Below, one piece after another: positions 1,841 to 64,000 of a DNA stretch of 64,000 bases. Below the pieces are notes generated by a model. It did no database searches. It saw only the letters and a program-made list of their open reading frames with translations, and had not been told where the DNA came from. The DNA lies in assembly GCA_964496815.1 (NCBI GenBank), contig CAZCAO010000001.1:17803-81802 (forward strand), read 5' to 3'. This DNA is from an uncultured Candidatus Saccharibacteria bacterium. GTDB taxonomy: Bacteria; Patescibacteriota; Saccharimonadia; CAILAD01; JADZBC01. Both the position numbers and the translations under genes were made by a program. Numbering within the stretch: the first letter of the stretch is position 1; each line of letters opens with the position of its first letter.

Positions 1841-3562
1841 ATGTCAGGCAAATATCAGCAAAAATCAACAGATTCGATTACGCCATACACATGGCGTTTT
1901 CTCGCAGAGCCCGACGCATTAGCTAGGAGCCCGATTGAATTACGTGAACTTATTCTGCAGCAGCGCGGCATAGGTAAAGACCAGCAGACCAGCTTCGTCT
2001 CGCCGCAGTATGAGGAGTTACATGCCCCGGATTTACTAAGTGGTATGGACGTCGCCGTGGCAAGGATTAGTCGTGCATTAGAGGGCGAGGAGCGGATTGT
2101 CGTCTATGGCGACTATGATATTGACGGCATAACGGCCACTGCCTTATTGGTTGATGTGCTTGAGCAGTTAGGTGCTCATGTTCGGCCGTATATTCCTGAT
2201 CGGTTCGAAGAAGGCTACGGACTCAATACCGAGGCCCTTACTACACTGCGATCCGACGGCACTGATTTGCTCATTAGTGTGGATTGCGGTATTTCTTCGG
2301 CTGCGGAAGTTGCTGCAGCGCAGAAGCTTGGACTCGACATTATCGTAACTGACCATCACAGCGTGCCCGAGGTAACCCCTGAGGCGGCAGTGGCCTGCAT
2401 AAATCCACGTATAGGCGCCGATGCGTATCCATTTAAGGATCTCGCTGGTGTTGCTGTAGCGTTTAAACTGGCCGTGGCTTTGGCAGCAGCACATCCTGGC
2501 AAAATCAAACCAGGTCGTGAAAAATGGCTACTTGATCTTGTCGCCCTTGGTACCGTCTGCGATGTTGTGCCACTCGTGGGCGAGAATCGGGCGCTGGTGC
2601 AGTTTGGGCTGACCGTGTTGCGCAAAAGCCCTCGTCCCGGACTGCGGGCACTAGCCGAGGTTAGTGGGGTTGAATTAGAGAGCGTTCAAGCTTCGGACCT
2701 AGGCTTTCGCTTCGGACCTCGCCTGAACGCTGCCGGACGATTGGAACATGCTGCACAAGCGCTAGAACTGATTACTACCAAGGACACAGGTCGGGCGAAA
2801 GAATTGGCCGAGGGACTAAATATTCTAAATCGCGAGCGACAAGATGAAACGGCGCGGGTATTTGCAGAAGCCATGGAGCAGGCGGAGGGTTACTCGGATG
2901 ATGCAATCTTGGTGCTGTCCGGCCCGGGTTGGTCGCACGGTATCGTCGGGCTGGTAGCTAGTCGGGTGAGTGAAGCTAGGCACAAACCTACGATTATTTT
3001 GCAGCAGCTTGGTGCGATTACCAAAGGTTCAGCTCGAAGCATGGGGGCTTTTAATATCATCGAAGCAATTACGAGTGCCCGGCAGCACCTCGAGCGTTAT
3101 GGTGGGCATGCCTTTGCTGCTGGTATGACACTGAAAACGGATAAGATAGCCGATTTTCGCAAGGCTCTAAACTCATATGCAGCTCTGCATTCGTCCGAGC
3201 TAGGTAAACAAAAGGAGCTTGTTATAACCTGCCGGCTTGATAGTACTACCCTTACTACTAGTCTTTTGGATGAACTCGAACTACTGGAGCCATATGGGAA
3301 CGCCAACCCACAGCCAGTATTTATGTCGCAGTTGAAGCTCGTGCGCATGCGTCCGGTTGGGGCTGATCAGAAGCATTTACAGATGAACTTTGACGCAGGC
3401 CGAGGGCAAATTGGTGCAATTGCCTTTAGCGCCGCCGGACGCTGGCCATGGCTGGAAATTGACCAAGAGGTCGAGGTGGCCTACCGAGCGTCAAAAAACG
3501 TTTGGAATGGGGTAGAGAGCTTGCAGTTAGAGGTGGTAGACATTCGACCTATTGGGGCTTGA
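1841..3562 (+). CDS. recJ: Single-stranded-DNA-specific exonuclease RecJ
   Basis: DHH/DHHA1 motifs (VVYGDYDIDGITATALL, DHH...); 573 aa; -10 TATACT 6 bp upstream of ATG. Confidence 0.9.
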   Translation: MSGKYQQKSTDSITPYTWRFLAEPDALARSPIELRELILQQRGIGKDQQTSFVSPQYEELHAPDLLSGMDVAVARISRALEGEERIVVYGDYDIDGITATALLVDVLEQLGAHVRPYIPDRFEEGYGLNTEALTTLRSDGTDLLISVDCGISSAAEVAAAQKLGLDIIVTDHHSVPEVTPEAAVACINPRIGADAYPFKDLAGVAVAFKLAVALAAAHPGKIKPGREKWLLDLVALGTVCDVVPLVGENRALVQFGLTVLRKSPRPGLRALAEVSGVELESVQASDLGFRFGPRLNAAGRLEHAAQALELITTKDTGRAKELAEGLNILNRERQDETARVFAEAMEQAEGYSDDAILVLSGPGWSHGIVGLVASRVSEARHKPTIILQQLGAITKGSARSMGAFNIIEAITSARQHLERYGGHAFAAGMTLKTDKIADFRKALNSYAALHSSELGKQKELVITCRLDSTTLTTSLLDELELLEPYGNANPQPVFMSQLKLVRMRPVGADQKHLQMNFDAGRGQIGAIAFSAAGRWPWLEIDQEVEVAYRASKNVWNGVESLQLEVVDIRPIGA

Positions 3563-5109: not shown

Positions 5110-5654
5110 GCCGACGTATTATCGTTCTAGGTATGCCAGGGGCCGGCAAAGATACGCAATGTGACATGCTTGCCAAAGAGCTGGGTGGGGTTATTATCAA
5201 GACCGGCGATATCGCTCGGCAGCTCGCTAAAACGAATACAAAAATTGCACAAATACTGCGTGAAGGCGGCTTAGTTGAAGATGACATTATCAACGCCAGA
5301 CTCGTAGAAAAGCTTAAAGAATTAGGTTCTGAACCTGACATTATCTTCGATGGCTTCCCTCGCAGGGTTGAGCAGGCACGTTGGCTTGATGAAATTTTAG
5401 GGCAAAAAGCTGCGCAGGACTTGCACGTATATTATCTGCGTATTAGTGCACAGTCTGCACTTAAACGCCTAATGAAACGTGGTCGAGCAGACGACACCGA
5501 TGCTATAGTGCGTAATCGTTTGCGTGTTTTTGCCGAGCAAACTGAGCCCGTATTGGCCTATTATCAGGCAAGCCATCGCTTGGTAGAAATTGACGGCGAA
5601 CCTAGCCCGTCAGAGATTCAGACAGAACTGCAGCATAAGATAAAGGAGCAGTAA
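5106..5654 (+). CDS. adk: Adenylate kinase-family nucleoside monophosphate kinase
   Basis: P-loop 'GMPGAGKDTQ', 'GFPRRVEQARWLDEIL' LID/NMP-binding pattern; ATGA overlap with dgkA stop. Confidence 0.7.
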   Translation: MSRRIIVLGMPGAGKDTQCDMLAKELGGVIIKTGDIARQLAKTNTKIAQILREGGLVEDDIINARLVEKLKELGSEPDIIFDGFPRRVEQARWLDEILGQKAAQDLHVYYLRISAQSALKRLMKRGRADDTDAIVRNRLRVFAEQTEPVLAYYQASHRLVEIDGEPSPSEIQTELQHKIKEQ

Positions 5655-5655
5655 T

Positions 5656-6408
5656 ATGATGACTCAGGTAAAAACAGAAGCAGAGATTGCTGCTATGAGG
5701 TATGGTGGCAAGATACTTGGGCAGACACTACAGACGCTGAAGGCAAAGGCTACTCCGGGTATGATGACCCAACAGATTGACCAACTAGCTCGGGATCTTT
5801 TAGCGGAGCAGGGCGTTGAACCAGCTTTCTTGGGTTTTGACGGTTTTCCCGCCGCAATTTGCATTTCGATTAATGAAGAAATAGTACATGGCATACCTGG
5901 GAGTCGGGTTCTCCGTGAGGGTGATCTGGTGAAGTTTGACTTTGGGGTTAAGCACGAAGGCATGATTACAGACAGTGCCATTAGTTTTGTACTTGGGGCA
6001 ACTACGAACTCGAAGGCTGAAAAACTGATCCGTGCCACCGAAGAAGCACTTAGTCGCGCCATTGATAGCTTGCATGACGGCGTGCGAGTGGGCGACATTA
6101 GTGCTGTGATCGGTACTACCATCCAGAAACATGGTTTTTCCGTGCTGCAGTCATTGGGCGGCCACGGCGTGGGTCATAGGCTTCATGAAGACCCCTGGAT
6201 AGGTAATGACGGGGTGGCTGGAACCGGGCAGATGCTCAAAGCAGGCATGACGATTGCCTTGGAACCGATAGCCTCAATTGGCACAGAAGACCTTGTGATG
6301 GCCGATGATGGCTGGACTTGCATAACTGACGATGGTTCACTGGCGGCACAGAGCGAACACACAATTTTAATCACTGAGTCTGGGGCAGAAATATTAACTC
6401 TTCCTTAG
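5656..6408 (+). CDS. map: Methionine aminopeptidase type I
   Basis: MetAP fold motifs (ISINEEIVHGIP, FVLG, HGVGHRLHE); AGGAG RBS. Confidence 0.9.
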   Translation: MMTQVKTEAEIAAMRYGGKILGQTLQTLKAKATPGMMTQQIDQLARDLLAEQGVEPAFLGFDGFPAAICISINEEIVHGIPGSRVLREGDLVKFDFGVKHEGMITDSAISFVLGATTNSKAEKLIRATEEALSRAIDSLHDGVRVGDISAVIGTTIQKHGFSVLQSLGGHGVGHRLHEDPWIGNDGVAGTGQMLKAGMTIALEPIASIGTEDLVMADDGWTCITDDGSLAAQSEHTILITESGAEILTLP

Positions 6409-22914: not shown

Positions 22915-23676
22915 GTGTCTCATATAATTGCTATTGCCAACCAGAAAGGAGGGGTAGGTAAAACTACCACCAGTATCAACCTGGGCGCCTACTTGGCTAA
23001 ACAAGGCCAAAAGGTATTAATTGTCGACTTGGATCCTCAAGGCAATAGTTCGAGCGGCCTGGCGATTGCCAAAAATCAATTACCGGCTACGGCATACAAT
23101 GTACTGATCGAAGGCGTTGTAGCAAGCGATGCCATTCAGGCTACTGGCGTGCCAAAACTCGATGTGCTACCGGCCAATGCCGTCTTAGCAGCTGCCGAAT
23201 TAGAGCTATCGACCATGCAACAAAGAGAATACCAGCTGCGCAAGGCACTCGGCGGTTTAGACTATGACTACATCCTGATTGACTGCCCCCCTTCGCTCGG
23301 GCTACTGACGCTCAATGGGCTCGTTGCGGCGACTCACTTGCTTATACCTGTTCAGTCTGAGTATTATGCCCTTGAGGGCCTCGGCCAGCTCTTAACAACA
23401 GTAAAAAGGGTGCGACAAGGCCTTAACCCACAGCTCACGCTGCTTGGTGTGGTCATCACAATGCATTCATCACGAACGAGTTTAGCCGCTCAGGTACAAA
23501 AGGAATTGAAACATCATTTTCCAGATACATTGTTTGATACAATAATTCCACGTAATATTAGATTAGCAGAGGCGCCAAGCCACGGCCGACCGATAAGCCA
23601 GTATGATAGGTTTTCCAAAGGCGCCCAGAGTTATAAGAAGCTTGCGAAGGAGGTAATGCAGCGTGTCAGCAAATAG
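22915..23676 (+). CDS. parA: Chromosome partitioning ATPase ParA/Soj
   Basis: 'KGGVGKTTT' deviant Walker A; GTG start after AAAGGAGGG. Confidence 0.9.
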   Translation: MSHIIAIANQKGGVGKTTTSINLGAYLAKQGQKVLIVDLDPQGNSSSGLAIAKNQLPATAYNVLIEGVVASDAIQATGVPKLDVLPANAVLAAAELELSTMQQREYQLRKALGGLDYDYILIDCPPSLGLLTLNGLVAATHLLIPVQSEYYALEGLGQLLTTVKRVRQGLNPQLTLLGVVITMHSSRTSLAAQVQKELKHHFPDTLFDTIIPRNIRLAEAPSHGRPISQYDRFSKGAQSYKKLAKEVMQRVSK

Positions 23677-24559
23677 TCAGAATACTAATCGACTGGGTAG
23701 GGGGCTTGAGAGCCTTATACCGACAGATATTGATGAGTTTGCCGCCCCTTCGATGCCGAAGGAGCTGATAAAAGAAGGCGCTCGAGTCGAAGACTTAGGT
23801 ATCAACGATATTGTGCCGAACCCAAATCAGCCACGTTCAACTTTTTCCGATGAGCAACTGGGCGAAATGGCACAATCAATTAAGGAGCATGGCATCGTTC
23901 AGCCGCTCGTGGTGGTGCGCGACGGCAGTACCTATCAGTTGATTGCTGGCGAGCGGAGATTGCGTGCTGCTAAGCTCGTTGGCCTAAAGACCGTGCCCGC
24001 AATAGTACGTAGCTTTTCGCAGCAAGAGCAGCTCGAGGTGGCTTTGATTGAAAACATTCAGCGTAGTGAGCTCAATGCCTTGGAGCTCGCTAGTGCCTAC
24101 GCCAAGTTGGCCGATCAGTTTAGCATGACGCTCGAGCAGATATCGCAGCGTGTTGGTAAAGCGGTTTCTACAGTGGGCAACATTATGCGCTTGCTGAACC
24201 TGCCACACGAAGCCAAAAAGGCTCTCAATGAGGGCCTAATCACCGAGGGCCATGCCAGGCAGATCCTTGCCGTGACAGATCCGGAGGATCAACTGATCTT
24301 TCTCGACATGATTATCAAGGGCGGACTGAATGTGCGTCAGGCCGAGGAATTGGCCCGTAATTTCAAAAAGGAAGGTAAAGCGGCGGTTAAGAAGGTGGTT
24401 GAAAAGCAAACCTACAATGCGCAACTAACTGCCGATCTCGGCAGGTATCTTGGTACCAAAGTAGATGTCCAAAAGACCGCCAAGGGTGGCAAGCTGGTGA
24501 TTGAATTCTATTCCGACGAGGAGCTTGGTCGTCTGTATCATCAAATCCTAGGGGAGTAA
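23663..24559 (+). CDS. parB: Chromosome partitioning protein ParB/Spo0J
   Basis: 'GERRLRAAKLVGL' ParB box, HTH. Confidence 0.9.
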   Translation: MSANSQNTNRLGRGLESLIPTDIDEFAAPSMPKELIKEGARVEDLGINDIVPNPNQPRSTFSDEQLGEMAQSIKEHGIVQPLVVVRDGSTYQLIAGERRLRAAKLVGLKTVPAIVRSFSQQEQLEVALIENIQRSELNALELASAYAKLADQFSMTLEQISQRVGKAVSTVGNIMRLLNLPHEAKKALNEGLITEGHARQILAVTDPEDQLIFLDMIIKGGLNVRQAEELARNFKKEGKAAVKKVVEKQTYNAQLTADLGRYLGTKVDVQKTAKGGKLVIEFYSDEELGRLYHQILGE

Positions 24560-41756: not shown

Positions 41757-42008
41757 ATGCTGATCGACGTTCGAACACCAGAGGAGTATGCCGAGGCTCA
41801 TTTGGAAGGGGCAGTCAATGTAGAGCTGAGCCCTGATATGGTAGAGCTGATTCCGGCAGAAGCAAGGCAAGAGACTATAAAGCTCTATTGCCGTAGTGGC
41901 GGCAGGGCAGGAACAGCCGCACGATTATTAGCACAGGCAGGCTACCAAGTGAAGAATATTGGCGGGATTGATGATTTAGTGGCTCAGGGATATAGTAAGG
42001 CTAAGTAA
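41757..42008 (+). CDS. Rhodanese-domain sulfurtransferase
   Basis: 'IDVRTPEEYAEAHLEGAVNV', active-site 'YCRSGGRAG'. Confidence 0.8.
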   Translation: MLIDVRTPEEYAEAHLEGAVNVELSPDMVELIPAEARQETIKLYCRSGGRAGTAARLLAQAGYQVKNIGGIDDLVAQGYSKAK

Positions 42009-42023
42009 TTAGGAGAATACCTA

Positions 42024-42202
42024 TGGATGACAAGAAAAAGAAAGACCTCGAAGAGCAAAAGCGCGGTGGCCTGTTCGTACCCGCTGGTGTCTTGCTGGGC
42101 ACCGGCCTGGGCTTTGCTTATGGTAATATCCCGGCGGGAGCACTGATTGGCTTGGGTGTAGGCTTTACTATCTTTGCCCTCATTAGCGTTTTCAAAAAAT
42201 AG
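42024..42202 (+). CDS. Small membrane protein (59 aa)
   Basis: Not in ORF track (<60 aa); AGGAG 7 nt upstream; Gly-zipper TM 'GVLLGTGLGFAYGNIPAGALIGLGVGF'; ends at terminator hairpin. Confidence 0.45.
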
Positions 42203-42216
42203 TGTCTTGGTATAAA

Positions 42217-42263
42217 CGAAGAAGACCCCCGAACGAATCGGGGGTCTTCTTCGTTCAGGGGTC
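42217..42263. terminator. Bidirectional intrinsic terminator, repeat-family copy 1
   Basis: CGAAGAAGACCCCCGA-acgaa-TCGGGGGTCTTCTTCG then TTCAGGGGTC. Confidence 0.7.
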
Positions 42264-42289
42264 AAACATAGTTGCTGTCGGAGTGTATA

Positions 42290-42727
42290 CTACAGTTCCA
42301 GTTCTAGGCCGAACGCGGCCAGCTGGGCCTGTATGAACTCCACGCTACCTGCATCAAGAGAGGTAGTGTTGAGCAGGAAGGTGGCGCGATACTTCATCAG
42401 CTCGCCAACGGTGTTGATACCGGATTGGTTGCGCAAGCAAGCGGCCGTTCGAGTCCTCAGCAGCTGCGGAAACTCGCGTCCCTCATGCTTCAAATCCAGC
42501 AGGTCTTCGATGCTCATCTCGAGAATCTCGCGCATTTTACCGACGAGCTCGGTTGTGACGCGTATTTCCTCGACCTTGATGGTGGCCATCACGTCGAGAC
42601 CGAAGTAGGTGTCTTCTAGTCTCCTGATGGTCTCGAGGGCTTCCAGTATGGCACTGGGGCTCCCTGTGAGGACGAGTTGCACGTGTGCTTTGTGCGGTAC
42701 GACTTCGGTTCCTTCGATGTCGGGCAT
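42290..42727 (-). CDS. Stand-alone RNA polymerase alpha-subunit C-terminal-domain-like protein
   Basis: C-terminal 'LRTRTAACLRNQSGINTVGELMKYRATFLLNTTSLDAGSVEFIQAQLAAFGL' aligns with alphaCTD '[51 protein letters not shown]'; own promoter TTGACT..TATATT. Confidence 0.55.
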   Translation of the reverse strand: MPDIEGTEVVPHKAHVQLVLTGSPSAILEALETIRRLEDTYFGLDVMATIKVEEIRVTTELVGKMREILEMSIEDLLDLKHEGREFPQLLRTRTAACLRNQSGINTVGELMKYRATFLLNTTSLDAGSVEFIQAQLAAFGLELEL

Positions 42728-42830
42728 TGCTAGGGCCTTTTGTTCTCTGCGGGGCTACCGCAGCACATCCACGGTGGATGATTAGCAGATAATATAACAA
42801 AATTAGTAAAAAGTCAATATTCTTATTAAG

Positions 42831-42873
42831 AAAGGACCCCCGAACGAATCGGGGGTCCTTTCGTTCGGGGGTC
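42831..42873 (-). terminator. Intrinsic terminator, repeat-family copy 2
   Basis: AAAGGACCCCCGA-acgaa-TCGGGGGTCCTTT then CGTTCGGGGGTC. Confidence 0.7.
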
Positions 42874-42894
42874 GGATTGTTGGTGGCCGCTTGC

Positions 42895-43272
42895 TCAGCG
42901 GCCGAGGATGACCGTACAGGACGGATTGTCCTGGATCAGCCAGTCGCCGTCGTACTGCACCAGCTTGCCATCGCAGACCTTGCTGGTCTTGGAGCCGTCT
43001 GTCACGGTGTAGCGCACGGCCCTCTTCCAGACCGAGAGCTCGACCACGTGGATCTTGTCGTAGTGCGACTCGACCTCCGTCGTGACACGGGCATCTTCCT
43101 TGGCCCGGCTCTCATCCACGAGGTACATGCCATTGGCGAAGACCACGAAGATGACGGCCAGTACCCCGAAGGCGATGGCTGGCTTCCAGTGTTTCTTGGA
43201 GATCAGCAGGACACCGGTGGCGACTGCGAGCACTCCCGCCATCATCAGTGCGACGATTACTTCTGCGCTCAT
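42895..43272 (-). CDS. Hypothetical two-TM membrane protein with C-terminal soluble domain
   Basis: 125 aa; AAGGAGG RBS; own promoter TTGTAT-18-TAATAT; GC-rich codon usage. Confidence 0.5.
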   Translation of the reverse strand: MSAEVIVALMMAGVLAVATGVLLISKKHWKPAIAFGVLAVIFVVFANGMYLVDESRAKEDARVTTEVESHYDKIHVVELSVWKRAVRYTVTDGSKTSKVCDGKLVQYDGDWLIQDNPSCTVILGR

Positions 43273-43367
43273 GGCGCCTCCTTGTTCGGGGCCTCAGATT
43301 TAAGGCTGAAGGGTATATTAGCATATTATGCAATAAAAGTAAATACATACAAGGTTTTTGTGTAATA

Positions 43368-43413
43368 ACGAAAAGACCCCCGAACGAATCGGGGGACTTT
43401 TCGTTCAGGGGTC
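43368..43413 (-). terminator. Intrinsic terminator, repeat-family copy 3
   Basis: GAAAAGACCCCCGA-acgaa-TCGGGGGACTTTTC then GTTCAGGGGTC. Confidence 0.7.
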
Positions 43414-43426
43414 GGGCTGTGCCGGC

Positions 43427-43846
43427 TCAGCCGGAGGTGATGACCAGCCTGATGTCGGCGAAGGCATTGGTCAGCGCCTGCTCGAACTCGAGGTTCTCGC
43501 CGATTCCGTGGCCGAAGTGCTCTCGAACGTCGACGGCTCGGATCACCTCGGTCTCCTTGAGCACGCTCAGGGCGTGGTCGATGATCTGTGCCTTGAGCTT
43601 CTCCTGCGGATCGCTCCGCTTGGCGTCGATCAGGACCACACGGTTGTGCAGCTGGCTGAGCTTCTCGTGCTTCTCGTGGAGTCGGCCCTCGACGTTGATC
43701 ACTGCATGTTCTGCAAGGATCTGGAAGCGCCCAGAGGTCACGATGGTCTGGATCTGGCCATCGTCACCCGTGAAGCGCAGGCTTCCGTCGGGCATGGTGG
43801 CCAAGAGGCCTACCTGCAGGGCAGGCGTGGTTGCAGTTGCAGCCAT
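43427..43846 (-). CDS. Hypothetical soluble protein (139 aa)
   Basis: AAGGAG RBS 5 nt before ATG; own promoter TTGACT-16-TATAAT; GC-rich. Confidence 0.5.
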   Translation of the reverse strand: MAATATTPALQVGLLATMPDGSLRFTGDDGQIQTIVTSGRFQILAEHAVINVEGRLHEKHEKLSQLHNRVVLIDAKRSDPQEKLKAQIIDHALSVLKETEVIRAVDVREHFGHGIGENLEFEQALTNAFADIRLVITSG

Positions 43847-43970
43847 GTCAGTTCTCCTTGGTCGGTGGATGACTAAATAATTATATACTAAATCGAAAAA
43901 TAGTCAATGTATTGAGTGTTTTATATCAAGCCTACTTTCCGCTATACTGTTGTAAAGAAAAGGAGCCAGT

Positions 43971-45284
43971 ATGGCACGGGTAACACCACGTATCCTCAGC
44001 GGTTTTGTTGAGCTTCTGCCCGAGGATCAGATCCAATTTAATAAGATGTTCGATACAATTCGTAGTGTGTACGAAAGCTATGGCTATGCACCGATTGAGA
44101 CACCGGCAATCGAGTTGGGAGAGGTTTTGCTCGCTAAGGCAGGCGGTGAGACCGAGAAGCAAATCTACAAAATCGCTCGGGACAAAGACGACAAAGAGAT
44201 GGCATTACACTTTGACCTAACTGTGCCCCTGGCGCGCTATGTAGCTCAGCACGAAGGTGAGTTGGTTTTGCCGTTTAGGCGCTATCAAATGCAAAAAGTC
44301 TGGCGTGGCGAACGCAGTCAGGCAGGACGATACAAGGAGTTCTACCAATGCGACATCGACGTCGTTGGCAGTAGCAATGTGCTCTATGACGCTGAAATGC
44401 CTGCTGTTATTTCGAGCGTATTCCGCCAGCTTAATATCGGTAGCTTCACGATTCGAATCAATAATCGAAAGATCTTACAGGGTTACTTGGAAAGCATTGG
44501 TGCACATCACATTTCGGCAGAAGTACTGCGTGTAATTGATAAGCTAGAAAAGATTGGCGAAGCTGCGGTGGTCTCTGAGCTCGTTAAGCTCGGCGTTGAA
44601 GAGCAAGCAACCCAAAAGCTACTGACATTCTTACGTACGGCAGGAACTGTGGACGAGGTGCTTGAGCAGCTTAGGCAAGTAGACACACAAAACACCCGCT
44701 ATCTAGCTGGGTTAGAGGAACTGAGTGGTGTGATTGACGGTATGCGTCGCCTAGGAGTGCCAGCCGAAGACTACGTGATCGATTTAAAGATTGCTAGGGG
44801 GCTAGATTATTACACCGGTACTGTTTACGAAACAAACCTGGATGACTTCCCAGGGGTAGGCAGTGTGTGTTCTGGTGGCCGTTATGACGATTTAGCGAGC
44901 TATTATACCAAGAGCAAACTGCCTGGAGTTGGAGTATCTATTGGCTTAACTCGGCTGTTTATGCAGCTTAAAGAAATTGGCCTGGTGAGTGCTGGAGCTA
45001 AGACCACCAGTCAGGCGGTGATCTTGCCTCTTAACCCCGCCGCAACTGCTCGCGCACTCGAAGTAGCTAGTGAGCTTCGCAATGCTGGTATCACAGTCGA
45101 AGCATACATGGAGCAGTCGCAGCCAAGCAAGATGATGCGCTACGTGGACCGCCTTGGCGCGCCCTATGCTATCGTGATCGGCGAGGATGAGTTGGCGAGT
45201 GGGGAAGTAGTGCTGAAGAATATGACAACGGGCGAACAGCCGGTGGTGAGCATACAGGAAGTGATCAAGCGCCTAAAGGGCTGA
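43971..45284 (+). CDS. hisS: Histidyl-tRNA synthetase
   Basis: Class II motifs, 'FDLTVPLARY', C-terminal anticodon-binding domain; AAGGAG RBS. Confidence 0.9.
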   Translation: MARVTPRILSGFVELLPEDQIQFNKMFDTIRSVYESYGYAPIETPAIELGEVLLAKAGGETEKQIYKIARDKDDKEMALHFDLTVPLARYVAQHEGELVLPFRRYQMQKVWRGERSQAGRYKEFYQCDIDVVGSSNVLYDAEMPAVISSVFRQLNIGSFTIRINNRKILQGYLESIGAHHISAEVLRVIDKLEKIGEAAVVSELVKLGVEEQATQKLLTFLRTAGTVDEVLEQLRQVDTQNTRYLAGLEELSGVIDGMRRLGVPAEDYVIDLKIARGLDYYTGTVYETNLDDFPGVGSVCSGGRYDDLASYYTKSKLPGVGVSIGLTRLFMQLKEIGLVSAGAKTTSQAVILPLNPAATARALEVASELRNAGITVEAYMEQSQPSKMMRYVDRLGAPYAIVIGEDELASGEVVLKNMTTGEQPVVSIQEVIKRLKG

Positions 45285-62654: not shown

Positions 62655-62677
62655 GAAGGCAGACGCCCCAAAAGATA

Positions 62678-62706
62678 TTGACTAATTAGTATATTTATAG
62701 TAAAAT
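62678..62706 (+). promoter_or_regulatory. sigma70-like promoter upstream of ppdK
   Basis: TTGACT-17 bp-TAAAAT. Confidence 0.5.
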
Positions 62707-62880
62707 ATACCCCTATTTATTACGACTTTTAAATCTATCTTGTCGGGTAAATCGTGCGACGAAGAATGTCGTTTTGACAGATGAATAGTTCTTTAGTGTG
62801 TTGATATGGGCAGGCGAATCAGCGATTAGTCTACAGGGTGAATGACTGCTCGCTGATTCGACTATCCCTTAGGAGGAACC

Positions 62881-64000
62881 ATGTCAGCATCACGTCAAGT
62901 GGTTTTCCTCTTCAACGAGGGGGATGAAGCCACCAGGACCCCTGCGTTTCGTGGGGGTAAGGGTGCAGGTTTGGCGGATATGGTGGCTCTCGGGCTGCCC
63001 GTTCCACCAGGCTTCACCATTGCTACCTCGGTTGCACGTGCATTCGCCGAAACCGGTCAGCTGCCCAAGCGGCTTGAAGGCCAGATTCGGCGGTCGATGC
63101 GCGTGATCGAGAAGTTGACCGGTCAGAAGTTTGGCGACACCGCGAGCCCCTTGCTGGTTTCGGTGCGCTCCGGCGCTCCCGTTTCCATGCCCGGCATGAT
63201 GGATACCGTCCTGAATGTCGGCTTGCGAAGGGAGATGCTTGGTTCACTCGAAAGTGCCAGCGGTCGAGAGTTCGCTGATGACACTTACGAGCGGTTCCTG
63301 CGTCAGTTCGGTTCTGCCGTTCTGGACCTTCCAGTCCAGGATGATCAGTTGCTCATCAAGGAGTCCGAAGGTCTTGTACCCGAAGATCCCTATGAGCAGC
63401 TGATGATGGCGATCCGAGCAGTCCTGCTTTCCTGGAATAGCGAGCGTGCTCGCACGTATCGCGACAACCAGGGGATCCCGCATTGGTGGGGAACTGCGGT
63501 AACCATTCAGGCAATGGCCTTTGGTAACCGAGATGATCAGTCGGCTACTGGTGTGGTGTTTAGCCATGACGTCAACACCGGCGCAGAGGTTCTCACCGGA
63601 GAATTCCTTGTTCGCGCCCAGGGTGAAGACATCGTGAGCGGCACCACGACGCCACAGTCGATCAATCGCATGCAGGCATGGAATCCGCAGCTCTACCAGG
63701 AGCTGCTGAACAGTGTCAGGCTGCTCTCTGATCATCTTGACAGCATGGTTGATGTCGAGTTCACCGTGGATAACGGCAAGCTCTTCATCCTCCAGGTTCG
63801 TCGTGCTACCCGTACGCCCCACGCCGCGGCTGCGTTCGCGGTTCGCCGAGTGTGGAGCCAGCGGTGGACGCACGTCGAGGCTGTCACGAGCCTCAGTGAA
63901 GCCGAACTCGAACAGCTCGAGGACGGTCAGGCCATGATGGAAGGAGATTCTACGCAACTGATTGCTGCCGGTATGCCCGCCTCGAACGGATGTGCTGTTG
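62881..64000 (+). CDS. ppdK: Pyruvate, phosphate dikinase (N-terminal part; runs off window end)
   Basis: Open frame from ATG at 62881 (AGGAGG 6 nt upstream) to window end; 'GGKGAGLADMVALGLPVPPGF', 'FGDTASPLLVSVRSGAPVSMPGMMDTVLNVGL' match PPDK N-terminal nucleotide-binding domain; absent from ORF track because no stop in window. Confidence 0.85.
   Translation, partial: MSASRQVVFLFNEGDEATRTPAFRGGKGAGLADMVALGLPVPPGFTIATSVARAFAETGQLPKRLEGQIRRSMRVIEKLTGQKFGDTASPLLVSVRSGAPVSMPGMMDTVLNVGLRREMLGSLESASGREFADDTYERFLRQFGSAVLDLPVQDDQLLIKESEGLVPEDPYEQLMMAIRAVLLSWNSERARTYRDNQGIPHWWGTAVTIQAMAFGNRDDQSATGVVFSHDVNTGAEVLTGEFLVRAQGEDIVSGTTTPQSINRMQAWNPQLYQELLNSVRLLSDHLDSMVDVEFTVDNGKLFILQVRRATRTPHAAAAFAVRRVWSQRWTHVEAVTSLSEAELEQLEDGQAMMEGDSTQLIAAGMPASNGCAV

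Follow-up and report, generated by a model that had tools for sequence, protein, structure and literature searches.

A repeated bidirectional terminator-like element bounds small gene modules in a Saccharibacteria islet and probably serves as a crossover patch in their reshuffling

The 64-kb stretch of Saccharibacteria DNA analysed here in full (hereafter, the window) contains an islet of ~1.6 kb, located between rhodanese/FtsX genes and hisS and ~20 kb from parAB, in which three small minus-strand genes each end in a copy of one and the same element of ~60 nt. We consider it probable that the islet is composed of terminator-bounded, moron-like modules, which are reshuffled by ordinary homologous recombination, with the repeated element acting as a crossover patch. 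As far as can be judged from the nucleotide sequence, each element copy would form the 3′ end of a self-contained unit consisting of a sigma-70-like promoter, a Shine-Dalgarno sequence, a small ORF with high GC3 and the element itself. The islet and its closest flanks are organized as follows:

41757-42008, plus strand: rhodanese gene of the left flank, convergent on element copy 1
42023-42202, plus strand: 59-aa membrane ORF of the left flank, convergent on element copy 1
42208..42271, minus strand: element copy 1, 3′ end of the 145-aa module (covariance model, 70.7 bits)
42215-42255, minus strand: hairpin of element copy 1, stem of 18 bp, loop at 42233-42237
42250-42263, minus strand: extra segment of element copy 1, with an added C/A-rich extension
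42290..42727, minus strand: module gene 1, 145 aa, with a C-terminal RNA polymerase alpha-CTD-like (HhH) domain (PF03118, E=8.5e-6); GC3 0.71
42789..42817, minus strand: predicted promoter of the 145-aa gene, TTGACT-17-TATTAT (10/12 match in the scan)
42819..42881, minus strand: element copy 2, 3′ end of the 125-aa module (covariance model, 81.8 bits)
42830-42862, minus strand: hairpin of element copy 2, stem of 14 bp
42860-42873, minus strand: extra segment of element copy 2, with perfect (14/14) alternative pairing
42895..43272, minus strand: module gene 2, 125 aa, with N-terminal transmembrane helices and no family match; GC3 0.84
43325..43352, minus strand: putative promoter of the 125-aa gene, TTGTAT-16-CATAAT after TG, read from the sequence and unflagged by the scan
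43359..43421, minus strand: element copy 3, 3′ end of the 139-aa module (covariance model, 77.6 bits)
43367-43405, minus strand: hairpin of element copy 3, stem of 17 bp with one mismatch
43400-43413, minus strand: extra segment of element copy 3
43427..43846, minus strand: module gene 3, 139 aa, orphan; GC3 0.82
43880..43907, minus strand: predicted promoter of the 139-aa gene, TTGACT-16-TATAAT (11/12 match in the scan)
43971..45284, plus strand: hisS of the right flank, divergent from the 139-aa module

An earlier note on this DNA had described a 23-nt core as identical in the three copies, which is slightly overstated: the 23-mer GACCCCCGAACGAATCGGGGGTC is present exactly at 42224-42246 and 42835-42857, but at 43375-43397 it carries one mismatch (GGGGGAC). 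No further site was found in the 64 kb and none in 100 shuffles; for the ~60-nt element as a whole, three copies are observed versus zero expected by chance. The element core consists of a GC-rich stem (GGACCCCCGA / UCGGGGGUCC) closed by a loop of 5 nt and bracketed by an A-tract and a U-tract (AACGAAAAG and CUUUUCGUU, respectively); the U-tract reads UCGGGGGUC(C)UUUUCGUU in the gene sense and, by symmetry, also in the plus sense. The stems of copies 1, 2 and 3 (18, 14 and 17 bp) are 100%, 100% and 94% complementary, respectively, and free of bulges. Ahead of the hairpin, in the gene sense, the 5′ arm occurs once more as an extra segment, CACAACCC-GACCCCCGAACGA. This third segment, written TTCGTTC[A/G]GGGGTC at the coordinates listed above, is found in all three copies and is complementary at 13–14 of 14 positions to the first arm plus loop, as the note had recognized. 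The repeats of the 9-mer arm GACCCCCGA are ordered direct, direct, inverted. This 9-mer was detected only in the three element copies within 64 kb, where no 10-mer occurs more than five times, and a DNA uptake sequence (DUS/USS) was discarded on these grounds. A reading as terminal inverted repeats, in which each gene would be flanked by a 14-mer and its inverse, was also abandoned, as the hisS-proximal unit has no partner repeat. The same three-copy array was assembled independently in four other samples with 99.6-99.97% identity, so it does not represent an assembly artefact.

The proposal that the copies are terminator hairpins agrees with their anatomy, which on both strands comprises all parts expected of an intrinsic terminator, and we predict that the element is a strong bidirectional Rho-independent terminator. 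The GC-rich stem-loops (stems of 14-18 bp, with covariation across 20 elements) are immediately followed by a U-rich tract in all three copies, and the three minus-strand stop codons precede it by 13-26 nt. Copy 3 was flagged as terminator-like on both strands by the scan, while copies 1 and 2, in which the U-tract is included in the extended stem, were read from the sequence. Copy 1 begins 12 nt past the stop codon of the convergent 59-aa ORF, for which it had been proposed to serve as well, and this outermost copy would thereby also halt the convergent ABC/FtsX-rhodanese operon. In turn, the inner copies may insulate the tandem units, their T-tracts adjoining the next promoter (that of copy 2 is placed 12 nt from the -35 box). 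The element resembles known bidirectional intrinsic terminators in its GC-rich stem-loop, complementary A- and U-tracts, position a few nucleotides after stop codons and use by convergent genes. It differs from them in the conserved extra copy of the 5′ arm, which provides a second register, and in being conserved over ~60 nt across unrelated genes and genomes, yet at one locus only.

Folding of the element copies on both strands gave z-scores from -3.8 to -7.3 and dG values from -28 to -39 kcal/mol. Across 20 distinct elements the canonical hairpin is 96% paired, with nine double-change cells, a level reached by none of 500 shuffles; because of these compensatory changes, the hairpin is evidently under selection. 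The two alternative foldings that had been suggested were also recovered, and for the minus strand of copy 2 the minimum-free-energy structure is the alternative pairing. Since the loop UUCGU repeats the U-tract motif, the extra arm can pair with the loop and the 3′ arm; this alternative register is 94.6% paired over the 20 elements and is more stable or tied in five of them (W2, L13b, L13c, which is a tie, L24 and L33), mostly those with a weakened canonical stem. Both registers finish at the same nucleotide before the U-tract, and thus either should terminate transcription. The extra 5′ segment is kept in 20/20 elements and shows no co-variation with the 3′ arm: T to C changes in the 3′ arm are compensated by the inner arm, but not by the extra segment. 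Pairing alone, therefore, cannot account for the conservation of this segment, and a sequence-specific binder or enzyme may conceivably act on it.

These features also bear on whether the element is mainly an RNA-level 3′UTR device, whose two-register hairpin and single-stranded C/A-rich tail would recruit a common RNA-binding protein or RNase for stability, processing or co-regulation. Such a role would fit with the C/U polymorphism of the extra segment, which keeps a G-U pair only in gene-sense RNA (pair 16-43: four U-G, one U-A), with the invariant orientation relative to the gene, with the retention across gene families of CACAACCC, located 8 nt upstream of the extra segment, and with the closeness in energy of the two folds in several copies. 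Yet, the alternative helix gains no covariation support beyond conservation alone, the common end point of the two registers leaves no on/off switch apparent, no candidate binder was identified, and an Rfam search with the element returned only sub-threshold chance matches to terminator-like models. We regard this as a rather unlikely main function, if the best placed of the alternatives. Sharing of the element would then reflect selection for regulation, and as this is compatible with modules reshuffled by homologous recombination, it could form an added layer to them.

The genes that carry the element are indeed unrelated, as had been stated. No mutual similarity was detected by blastp among the 145-, 125- and 139-aa proteins, and overprinting or frame-shifted paralogy was rejected, for tblastx and blastn comparisons gave compositional noise only. 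GC3 of the module genes amounts to 0.71-0.84, versus 0.38-0.57 in the other ORFs upstream of 62.7 kb. The 139-aa protein falls into only three clusters among 1.84 billion representative proteins; the AlphaFold model of its family is mediocre (pLDDT 70), and a structure search with this family gave no fold match at E<=0.001. That the genes or the element derive from phages, defence systems or plasmids was likewise rejected, as nothing significant emerged from PHROGs (best E-value, 0.011), PADLOC, phage tblastn, or plasmid and phage blastn. The 139-aa protein had no phage match, the element had no full-length match in phage or plasmid records, and two pattern scans of viral contigs retrieved no copy of it.

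Phage morons are independent promoter-gene-terminator units spread by horizontal transfer (PMC3594210). The islet units are alike in being apparently autonomous, with their own promoter and terminator, in their deviant base composition, in encoding small orphan proteins and in their lateral spread. Unlike morons, however, they are located outside any prophage: no phage genes were found, no significant PHROG match was obtained, and the flanks encode HisS, TypA, rhodanese and an ABC transporter. Moreover, they share one terminator family and form a tandem array at a fixed chromosomal site.

Comparison of ~13 syntenic loci revealed that each holds one to four modules, drawn from a pool that comprises an alpha-CTD-like family with two subfamilies, two other recurrent families and three singletons. 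The relatives possess different subsets of the four recurrent modules, plus singletons, while the order counted from hisS is invariant in all genomes (aCTD-B > 139 > 125 > aCTD-A). Throughout the clade, no ortholog of any module lacks the element, which is thus passed on together with its module. Breakpoints of homology coincide with the element edge or lie within the element. Loci L014 and L003, 89% identical overall, have in common an identical 209-bp tract, which stops right after the element and gives way to unrelated genes. In L013 and L031, the 3′ half of one element (with the rare variant TTCAGGGG) and the downstream promoter are the same, but the 5′ half of this element and the upstream gene differ, which indicates that the hairpins, which are poorly paired, are chimeric. 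The GGCCCCC arm variant occurs in three of the four L013 elements and is missing from the orthologous modules of the window. Finally, the sole difference between the window and the conspecific assembly L036 is a 270-bp patch that extends from the edge of element copy 3 and corresponds exactly to the L013 allele. Other breakpoints are located away from the element, at the 5′ end of g145 and in the 5′UTR of g139; hence, the element is not the sole crossover point.

The relation between the window and L013 shows, at the level of sequence identity, recent lateral exchange of a two-module block between diverged genomes. The 125 and 139 modules, together with the AT-rich intergenic DNA, are 97-100% identical, with mismatch-free tracts of 330 bp and 225 bp, versus 64-84% identity in the flanking FtsX, rhodanese, hisS and typA genes. 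We base firm evidence of transfer on the window/L013/L036 comparison only, as it includes AT-rich non-coding DNA. The dS of module genes is low relative to hisS, a value confounded by extreme GC3, and dS as a clock was set aside for all modules, since synonymous sites are under constraint at a GC3 of 0.8-0.97.

With one ~60-nt direct repeat closing each unit, the copies could act as partners in RecA-type recombination. Such recombination would delete units, generate chimeric elements and homogenise the copies within an array and, in combination with natural transformation, could pass units between strains and species. Natural competence, with integration of the DNA through homologous recombination, has been described in Saccharibacteria (PMC10633639). 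We infer that homologous rather than enzymatic site-specific recombination is at work here and that transformation is the route of transfer. Variable islets between core genes of transformable bacteria are similar in their fixed position, strain-specific content, mosaic identity tracts and competent host (PMC10633639). The present islet differs from them in its uniform modules with an internal repeat, which provides crossover points besides the flanking core genes. Of the shared assembly mechanism put forward in the earlier note, the part that stands is common descent and recombination, in view of the variable content, the breakpoints and the nearly identical block; dedicated cassette capture does not, given that no recombinase was found in the window or the 13 loci, that integron core sites are absent and that the modules have their own promoters and a fixed order. 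Repeat-mediated deletion and exchange by general homologous recombination fits better than insertion by a capture system. Homologous recombination does not account for unrelated ORFs sitting in one promoter/terminator framework, and tandem duplication is documented for two alpha-CTD paralogues only.

We hold it for doubtful that the islet represents an integrase-less cassette system of Saccharibacteria (CPR), in which promoter-bearing cassettes of orphan, fast-evolving small proteins, RNA polymerase alpha-CTD mimics included, would move between species and the tripartite ~60-nt 3′ element would be the true recombination or capture site, recognised, e.g., by an unlinked enzyme or, during natural transformation, in the form of a folded single strand. 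Equally doubtful is that the element is the recombination site of an unrecognised site-specific or hairpin-dependent cassette system, similar in function to integron attC or Xer/pdif, with the extra segment and arm repeats as enzyme sites and the enzyme encoded elsewhere. The latter would be consistent with the same 3′ element on unrelated ORFs, with conservation of the extra segment as sequence and not via pairing, with the spread of modules across species, and with one breakpoint lying within the hairpin near the loop (L013 vs L031) and another exactly at the element edge. Yet, no tyrosine, serine or HUH recombinase was found within 64 kb or within +/-6 kb in the 13 loci, and there was no recombinase or transposase among 30 of the larger and unassigned window ORFs (Pfam) or in the Pfam lists of these loci. 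In addition, the breakpoint positions vary, the module order is conserved rather than shuffled, and no empty or attI-like site was seen. The islet does share with integron cassettes and their attC sites (including the near-identical attC of sedentary chromosomal integrons) the tandem small orphan genes in the same orientation, the palindromic element after each of them and the variable content. Unlike integrons, it has no IntI, attI, R''/R' core sites or extrahelical bases, its stems being perfect, and its breakpoints are unfixed; the array adjoins hisS, with no intI integrase or attI next to it. On both strands, the R'' candidates (TAATAAC, TATAAAC, CCTGAAC, CCCGAAC) do not fit RYYYAAC, and the R' candidates (GTTCAGG, GTTTATA, GTTATTA) do not fit GTTRRRY. 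Furthermore, integron cassettes are mostly promoterless and their order varies via attI, whereas every islet unit has its own predicted promoter (TTGACx-16/17-TAtaAT) and the order is maintained. A Xer/dif-type site (pdif) was rejected as well: the arms are of 9 bp with a 5-nt spacer, not ~11-bp half-sites with a 6-8-bp centre (11-6/8-11), and the islet is not at the terminus.

The distribution of the element was assessed in directly inspected regions of ~64 kb of the source genome and 8-14 kb per relative. In these data, as had been proposed, the element is not a generic terminator but appears specific for one clade and one locus. Scores of 59-86 bits with a covariance model were obtained only at the 3′ ends of minus-strand module genes, always in the gene sense, and the matches were confined to the rhodanese/FtsX-hisS gap in ~13 related Saccharibacteria loci. 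Exact matches to the 20-nt core ACCCCCGAACGAATCGGGGG in three further reference genomes of Saccharibacteria/Patescibacteria are limited to this same locus. In unrelated phyla, 11 loci have this core as a plain terminator that lacks the extra segment; look-alike terminators with the same core in other phyla reach <=39 bits. The other long terminator-like hairpins of the window are all different from the element. Two scans of metagenome contigs gave no element matches, but the collection evidently lacks the source samples, so this result has no bearing on rarity.

An origin of the element as a selfish, REP/BIME-like or MITE-like miniature repeat, inserted independently after three pre-existing genes, is very improbable. 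As in REPs, a palindromic hairpin is located in intergenic DNA at gene 3′ ends next to a conserved motif, is likely to act in termination or mRNA stability and is used as a recombination substrate. REPs, however, are dispersed in tens to hundreds of copies and are accompanied by RAYT transposases, whereas the element is found in one to four copies per genome, all in the one islet, with exactly one copy per module in constant orientation, transmitted along with the module throughout the clade; the window holds no fourth copy, and neither target-site duplications or duplicated flanks nor a RAYT or other transposase were found. Convergence of three ordinary terminators, whether fortuitous or driven by general selection for a good hairpin, is effectively refuted: despite the recurrence of the core in unrelated phyla, those copies have neither the extra segment nor comparable scores, the similarity of the window copies spans ~60 nt including the loop and unpaired parts, and the window's other hairpins are dissimilar.

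Saccharibacteria (TM7) have tiny genomes with few recognised mobile elements. The ~1.6-kb islet shows a route of accessory-gene turnover in these bacteria, based on uniform promoter-ORF-terminator modules in which the repeat probably doubles as transcription stop and crossover patch, and along which at least one block of two modules was recently transferred between genomes with 64-84% identity in their core genes. The module proteins are clade-restricted orphans, including stand-alone RNA polymerase alpha-CTD-like proteins, with high dN/dS and extreme GC3, and are candidates for roles in host interaction or in conflicts. The two-register terminator itself is a compact natural design, which could find use as an insulated part for gene expression in Saccharibacteria, now that these have become tractable.

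The islet between the rhodanese/FtsX genes and hisS is flanked by a plus-strand ABC/FtsX-rhodanese-59-aa gene run on one side and by hisS-typA-relA on the other. It holds three minus-strand genes, each followed 13–26 nt after its stop codon by one copy of the hairpin element.

Module genes of the islet
42290-42727, minus strand, module gene 1 (g145), 145 aa, C-terminal RNA polymerase alpha-CTD-like domain (PF03118)
42895-43272, minus strand, module gene 2, 125 aa, N-terminal membrane helices
43427-43846, minus strand, module gene 3, 139 aa, without family assignment

No relatedness among the three proteins was detected by blastp. A separate AT-rich promoter precedes each module gene (TTGACT-17-TATTAT for the 145-aa gene, TTGACT-16-TATAAT for the 139-aa gene and a weaker, putative TTGTAT-16-CATAAT for the 125-aa gene); the Shine-Dalgarno sequence AAGGAG precedes the 125- and 139-aa genes, and only a weaker AAAGG the 145-aa gene. 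Their GC3 is 0.71–0.84, vs. 0.38–0.57 in all other ORFs upstream of 62.7 kb; a single further outlier lies at the high-GC 3' end of the window. None of the 30 window ORFs scanned with Pfam encodes recombinase, transposase or phage functions.

The coordinates and description of the three hairpins in the earlier note proved right, except that the 23-nt core, which it called identical, is exact at 42224-42246 and 42835-42857 and carries one mismatch at 43375-43397. The core does not recur elsewhere in the 64 kb (shuffled sequences gave 0 matches), the arm 9-mer is present in the three copies only, and no other long hairpin of the window is alike in sequence. Stems of 18, 14 and 17 bp (copies 1–3) enclose a 5-nt loop, and every hairpin is followed by the 14-mer TTCGTTC[A/G]GGGGTC, complementary to the first arm plus loop at 13–14 of 14 positions. 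Both of the proposed foldings are possible, the alternative one being the minimum-free-energy fold of copy 2 in gene sense; in either orientation, all copies fold much better than shuffles. The array is reproduced by four independent assemblies at 99.6–99.97% identity.

The gene-sense consensus of 20 distinct copies reads CACAACCC-GACCCCCGAACGAAAAG-GACCCCCGA-UUCGU-UCGGGGGUC-CUUUUCGUU and follows the scheme P X aag P a X' P' ctt X', where X is AACGAA and P is GACCCCCG. In register 1, a classical terminator hairpin, [X aag P] pairs with [P' ctt X'], and this register is predicted to be bidirectional because an A-tract and a U-tract flank the stem. In register 2, the extra [P X] pairs with [X' P'], i.e., the loop and 3' arm; were the motif of the U-tract not repeated in the loop, this pairing could not form. 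The two registers share their end point, the nucleotide that immediately precedes the U-tract. Pairing of the inner hairpin amounts to 96% over the 20 elements, with nine double-change cells, a result reached by none of 500 shuffles; register 2 is 94.6% paired and exhibits no covariation beyond conservation. A T-to-C change in the 3' arm is compensated by the inner arm, not by the extra segment. Register 1 is the more stable in 14/20 elements and register 2 in window copy 2 and in L13b, L24 and L33, with a tie in L13c, a group that includes copies whose canonical stem is shortened, mismatched or bulged; for L27b, the energies do not cleanly separate the registers. The extra segment and its C/A-rich extension are kept in 20/20 copies, but not through pairing. 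We favor the view that it represents a “spare 5' arm” which keeps the terminator functional after crossovers leave mismatched halves, yet it may equally well be where a protein or enzyme binds.

A search of the species-representative genome collection yielded 15 loci with the exact 20-nt core ACCCCCGAACGAATCGGGGG. Eleven of these are plain A-tract/T-tract terminators of unrelated phyla without the extra segment. Such ordinary terminators with the core stand in L001, L002, L004-L012 and L015 (Limnohabitans, Saprospiraceae, Dryocola, Rhodoluna, Arcanobacterium, Alphaproteobacteria), and the sequence seems to recur as one way of making a C5/G5 hairpin. The full element with exact core occurs four times (L003, L014 and twice in L013), in Saccharibacteria/Patescibacteria MAGs and always at the syntenic locus; further syntenic loci were found through homologs of the 139-aa protein and hisS. 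Trained on the 20 copies and run over 288 kb, a covariance model scored 59–86 bits at the 3' ends of the minus-strand genes between rhodanese/FtsX and hisS, in gene sense throughout, with no match outside module 3' ends and just the three sites in the window, while same-core terminators of other phyla reached at most 39 bits. As the earlier note supposed, the element is therefore island-specific and not a ubiquitous terminator. Rfam contains no family matching it, viral contigs gave 0 matches, and phage and plasmid records no full-length match; two metagenome scans were empty in a collection demonstrably without relevant samples. The element family is real and clade-specific.

Module genes fall into alpha-CTD-like (subfamilies aCTD-A and aCTD-B), 125 and 139 families plus three singletons (136, 121 and 176 aa).

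Module content of the syntenic loci
L013: aCTD-A, 125, 139, aCTD-B
Window: aCTD-A, 125, 139
L027: 125, aCTD-B
L031: aCTD-A, 121
L020: 136, 139
L003, L029: 125
L014, L032: aCTD-B
L016, L024, L025: 139
L033: 176

Counted from hisS, module order is invariant (aCTD-B > 139 > 125 > aCTD-A). This pattern fits differential loss from a larger ancestral array with occasional replacement, but not the free shuffling known from integrons. All families are orphans: the 139 family forms three clusters among 1.84 billion representative proteins, the 145-aa protein gave a self-match only in a word-indexed search, and module proteins have no PHROG, PADLOC or phage matches. The proteins are nonetheless real, given the alpha-CTD domain, codon-position GC periodicity and dN/dS of 0.24–0.9. 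Duplication is apparent only for the two alpha-CTD paralogs (30–33% identical). The aCTD-B-type modules of L014 (~5430-5470) and L027 (~5855-5900) share a 5'UTR hairpin, CGCCCAGAAGGGCG, between promoter and start codon, near-identical despite a hisS dS of 1.26 between the genomes. In L033, the rhodanese gene is followed by a different perfect hairpin, GGAACCCTCGAGGGAGTCGAGGGTTCC, the 176-aa singleton carries the usual element at its 3' end, and the gap (2700-3390) contains one more gene, on the plus strand, which encodes 152 aa and has normal GC3 (0.42).

The glycine-zipper-like, membrane 59-aa ORF (42023-42202, plus strand) between rhodanese and islet is present in the window, L013, L025, L031 and L032 and absent from L014, L003, L016 and L020; thus, the left edge of the islet is variable too. 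Since parA/parB (22915-24559) are ~20 kb away, the islet is probably origin-proximal, not near the terminus or a dif site. Outside its immediate clade (at least 75% identity, plus a few matches at 58–62%), the listed homologs of hisS (43971-45284) are ~54–58% identical, the few named ones being labelled Lachnospiraceae and not other Patescibacteria; hisS may be an old horizontal acquisition. A PF01326 gene (pyruvate phosphate dikinase N-terminal domain; 62881-64000, plus strand, continuing beyond the window end) has a GC of 0.586 vs. a background of ~0.49, and its leader region (62670-62880) reads as an AT-rich TTGACT promoter-like stretch followed by a ~170-nt leader. It is thus the second case of a gene of foreign composition behind a promoter of native appearance, which suggests that such arrangements are not limited to the islet.

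Pairwise comparisons revealed recombination footprints. L014 and L003, with flanks 89% identical, share a 209-bp difference-free tract ending right after the element, beyond which lie wholly different genes, aCTD-B in L014 and a 125-family gene in L003. In L013 and L031, the aCTD-A module and its promoter are shared, as is the 3' half of the element upstream of them, with the rare variant UUCAGGGG. The 5' half of this element and the next gene upstream are different, and the hairpins of these chimeric elements are poorly matched. The GGCCCCC arm variant, found in 3/4 L013 elements and absent from the orthologous window modules despite 97% identity, points to conversion among copies within an array. 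The 125 and 139 modules, AT-rich spacers included, are 97–100% identical between window and L013 (mismatch-free at 43025-43354 and 43625-43849), vs. 64% for FtsX, 73% for rhodanese and hisS, 84% for typA and 62% for g145 and its L013 counterpart g147. In this aCTD-A gene (42290-42727; L013 2584-3027), promoter, 5'UTR and the first ~20 codons are ~93–95% identical next to modules at 97%, and a sharp allele boundary lies within the gene, whose proteins are 52% identical (dN/dS 0.38). The conspecific assembly L036 differs from the window only by one SNP and in a 270-bp patch (43355-43624), which begins 4 nt outside element copy 3 and matches the L013 allele position for position. Because g145 (first codons) and g139 (5'UTR) contain breakpoints as well, crossovers favor the element but are not exclusive to it. 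Module genes have a much lower dS than hisS in every pair (e.g., 0.03–0.07 vs. 1.75; 0.08 vs. 1.26), a comparison confounded by GC3 constraint.

The array superficially resembles a sedentary integron, but shows none of the defining attC/IntI features tested. Membership tests likewise speak against the element being a REP, MITE, DUS or dif-type site. That a CPR bacterium has here a dedicated site for cassette recombination, with which crossovers at the element would agree, seems improbable to us. General homologous recombination acting on the ~60-nt direct repeats and conserved flanks fits the variable crossover positions inside the repeat or at its ends, the chimeric elements, within-array homogenization, mosaic identity tracts, conserved module order and the lack of a recombinase nearby. 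By its anatomy, the element would work as a bidirectional intrinsic terminator: its outermost copy would serve the convergent operon in all genomes, whether the 59-aa ORF, rhodanese or FtsX ends there, and inner copies sit between tandem units, 3–15 nt from the next -35 box. Homologous recombination does not account for the acquisition of one framework by unrelated ORFs; the extreme GC3, AT-rich promoters and absence of outside homologs could point to genes of foreign origin or to a recombination hotspot with GC-biased conversion.

Natural competence and the integration of DNA by homologous recombination, both described for Saccharibacteria (PMC10633639), would offer a possible transfer route for modules; termination, RecA dependence and transformation are our inferences. 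Organized like phage morons (PMC3594210), but outside any prophage, these units are terminator-bounded gene modules in a recombination islet.
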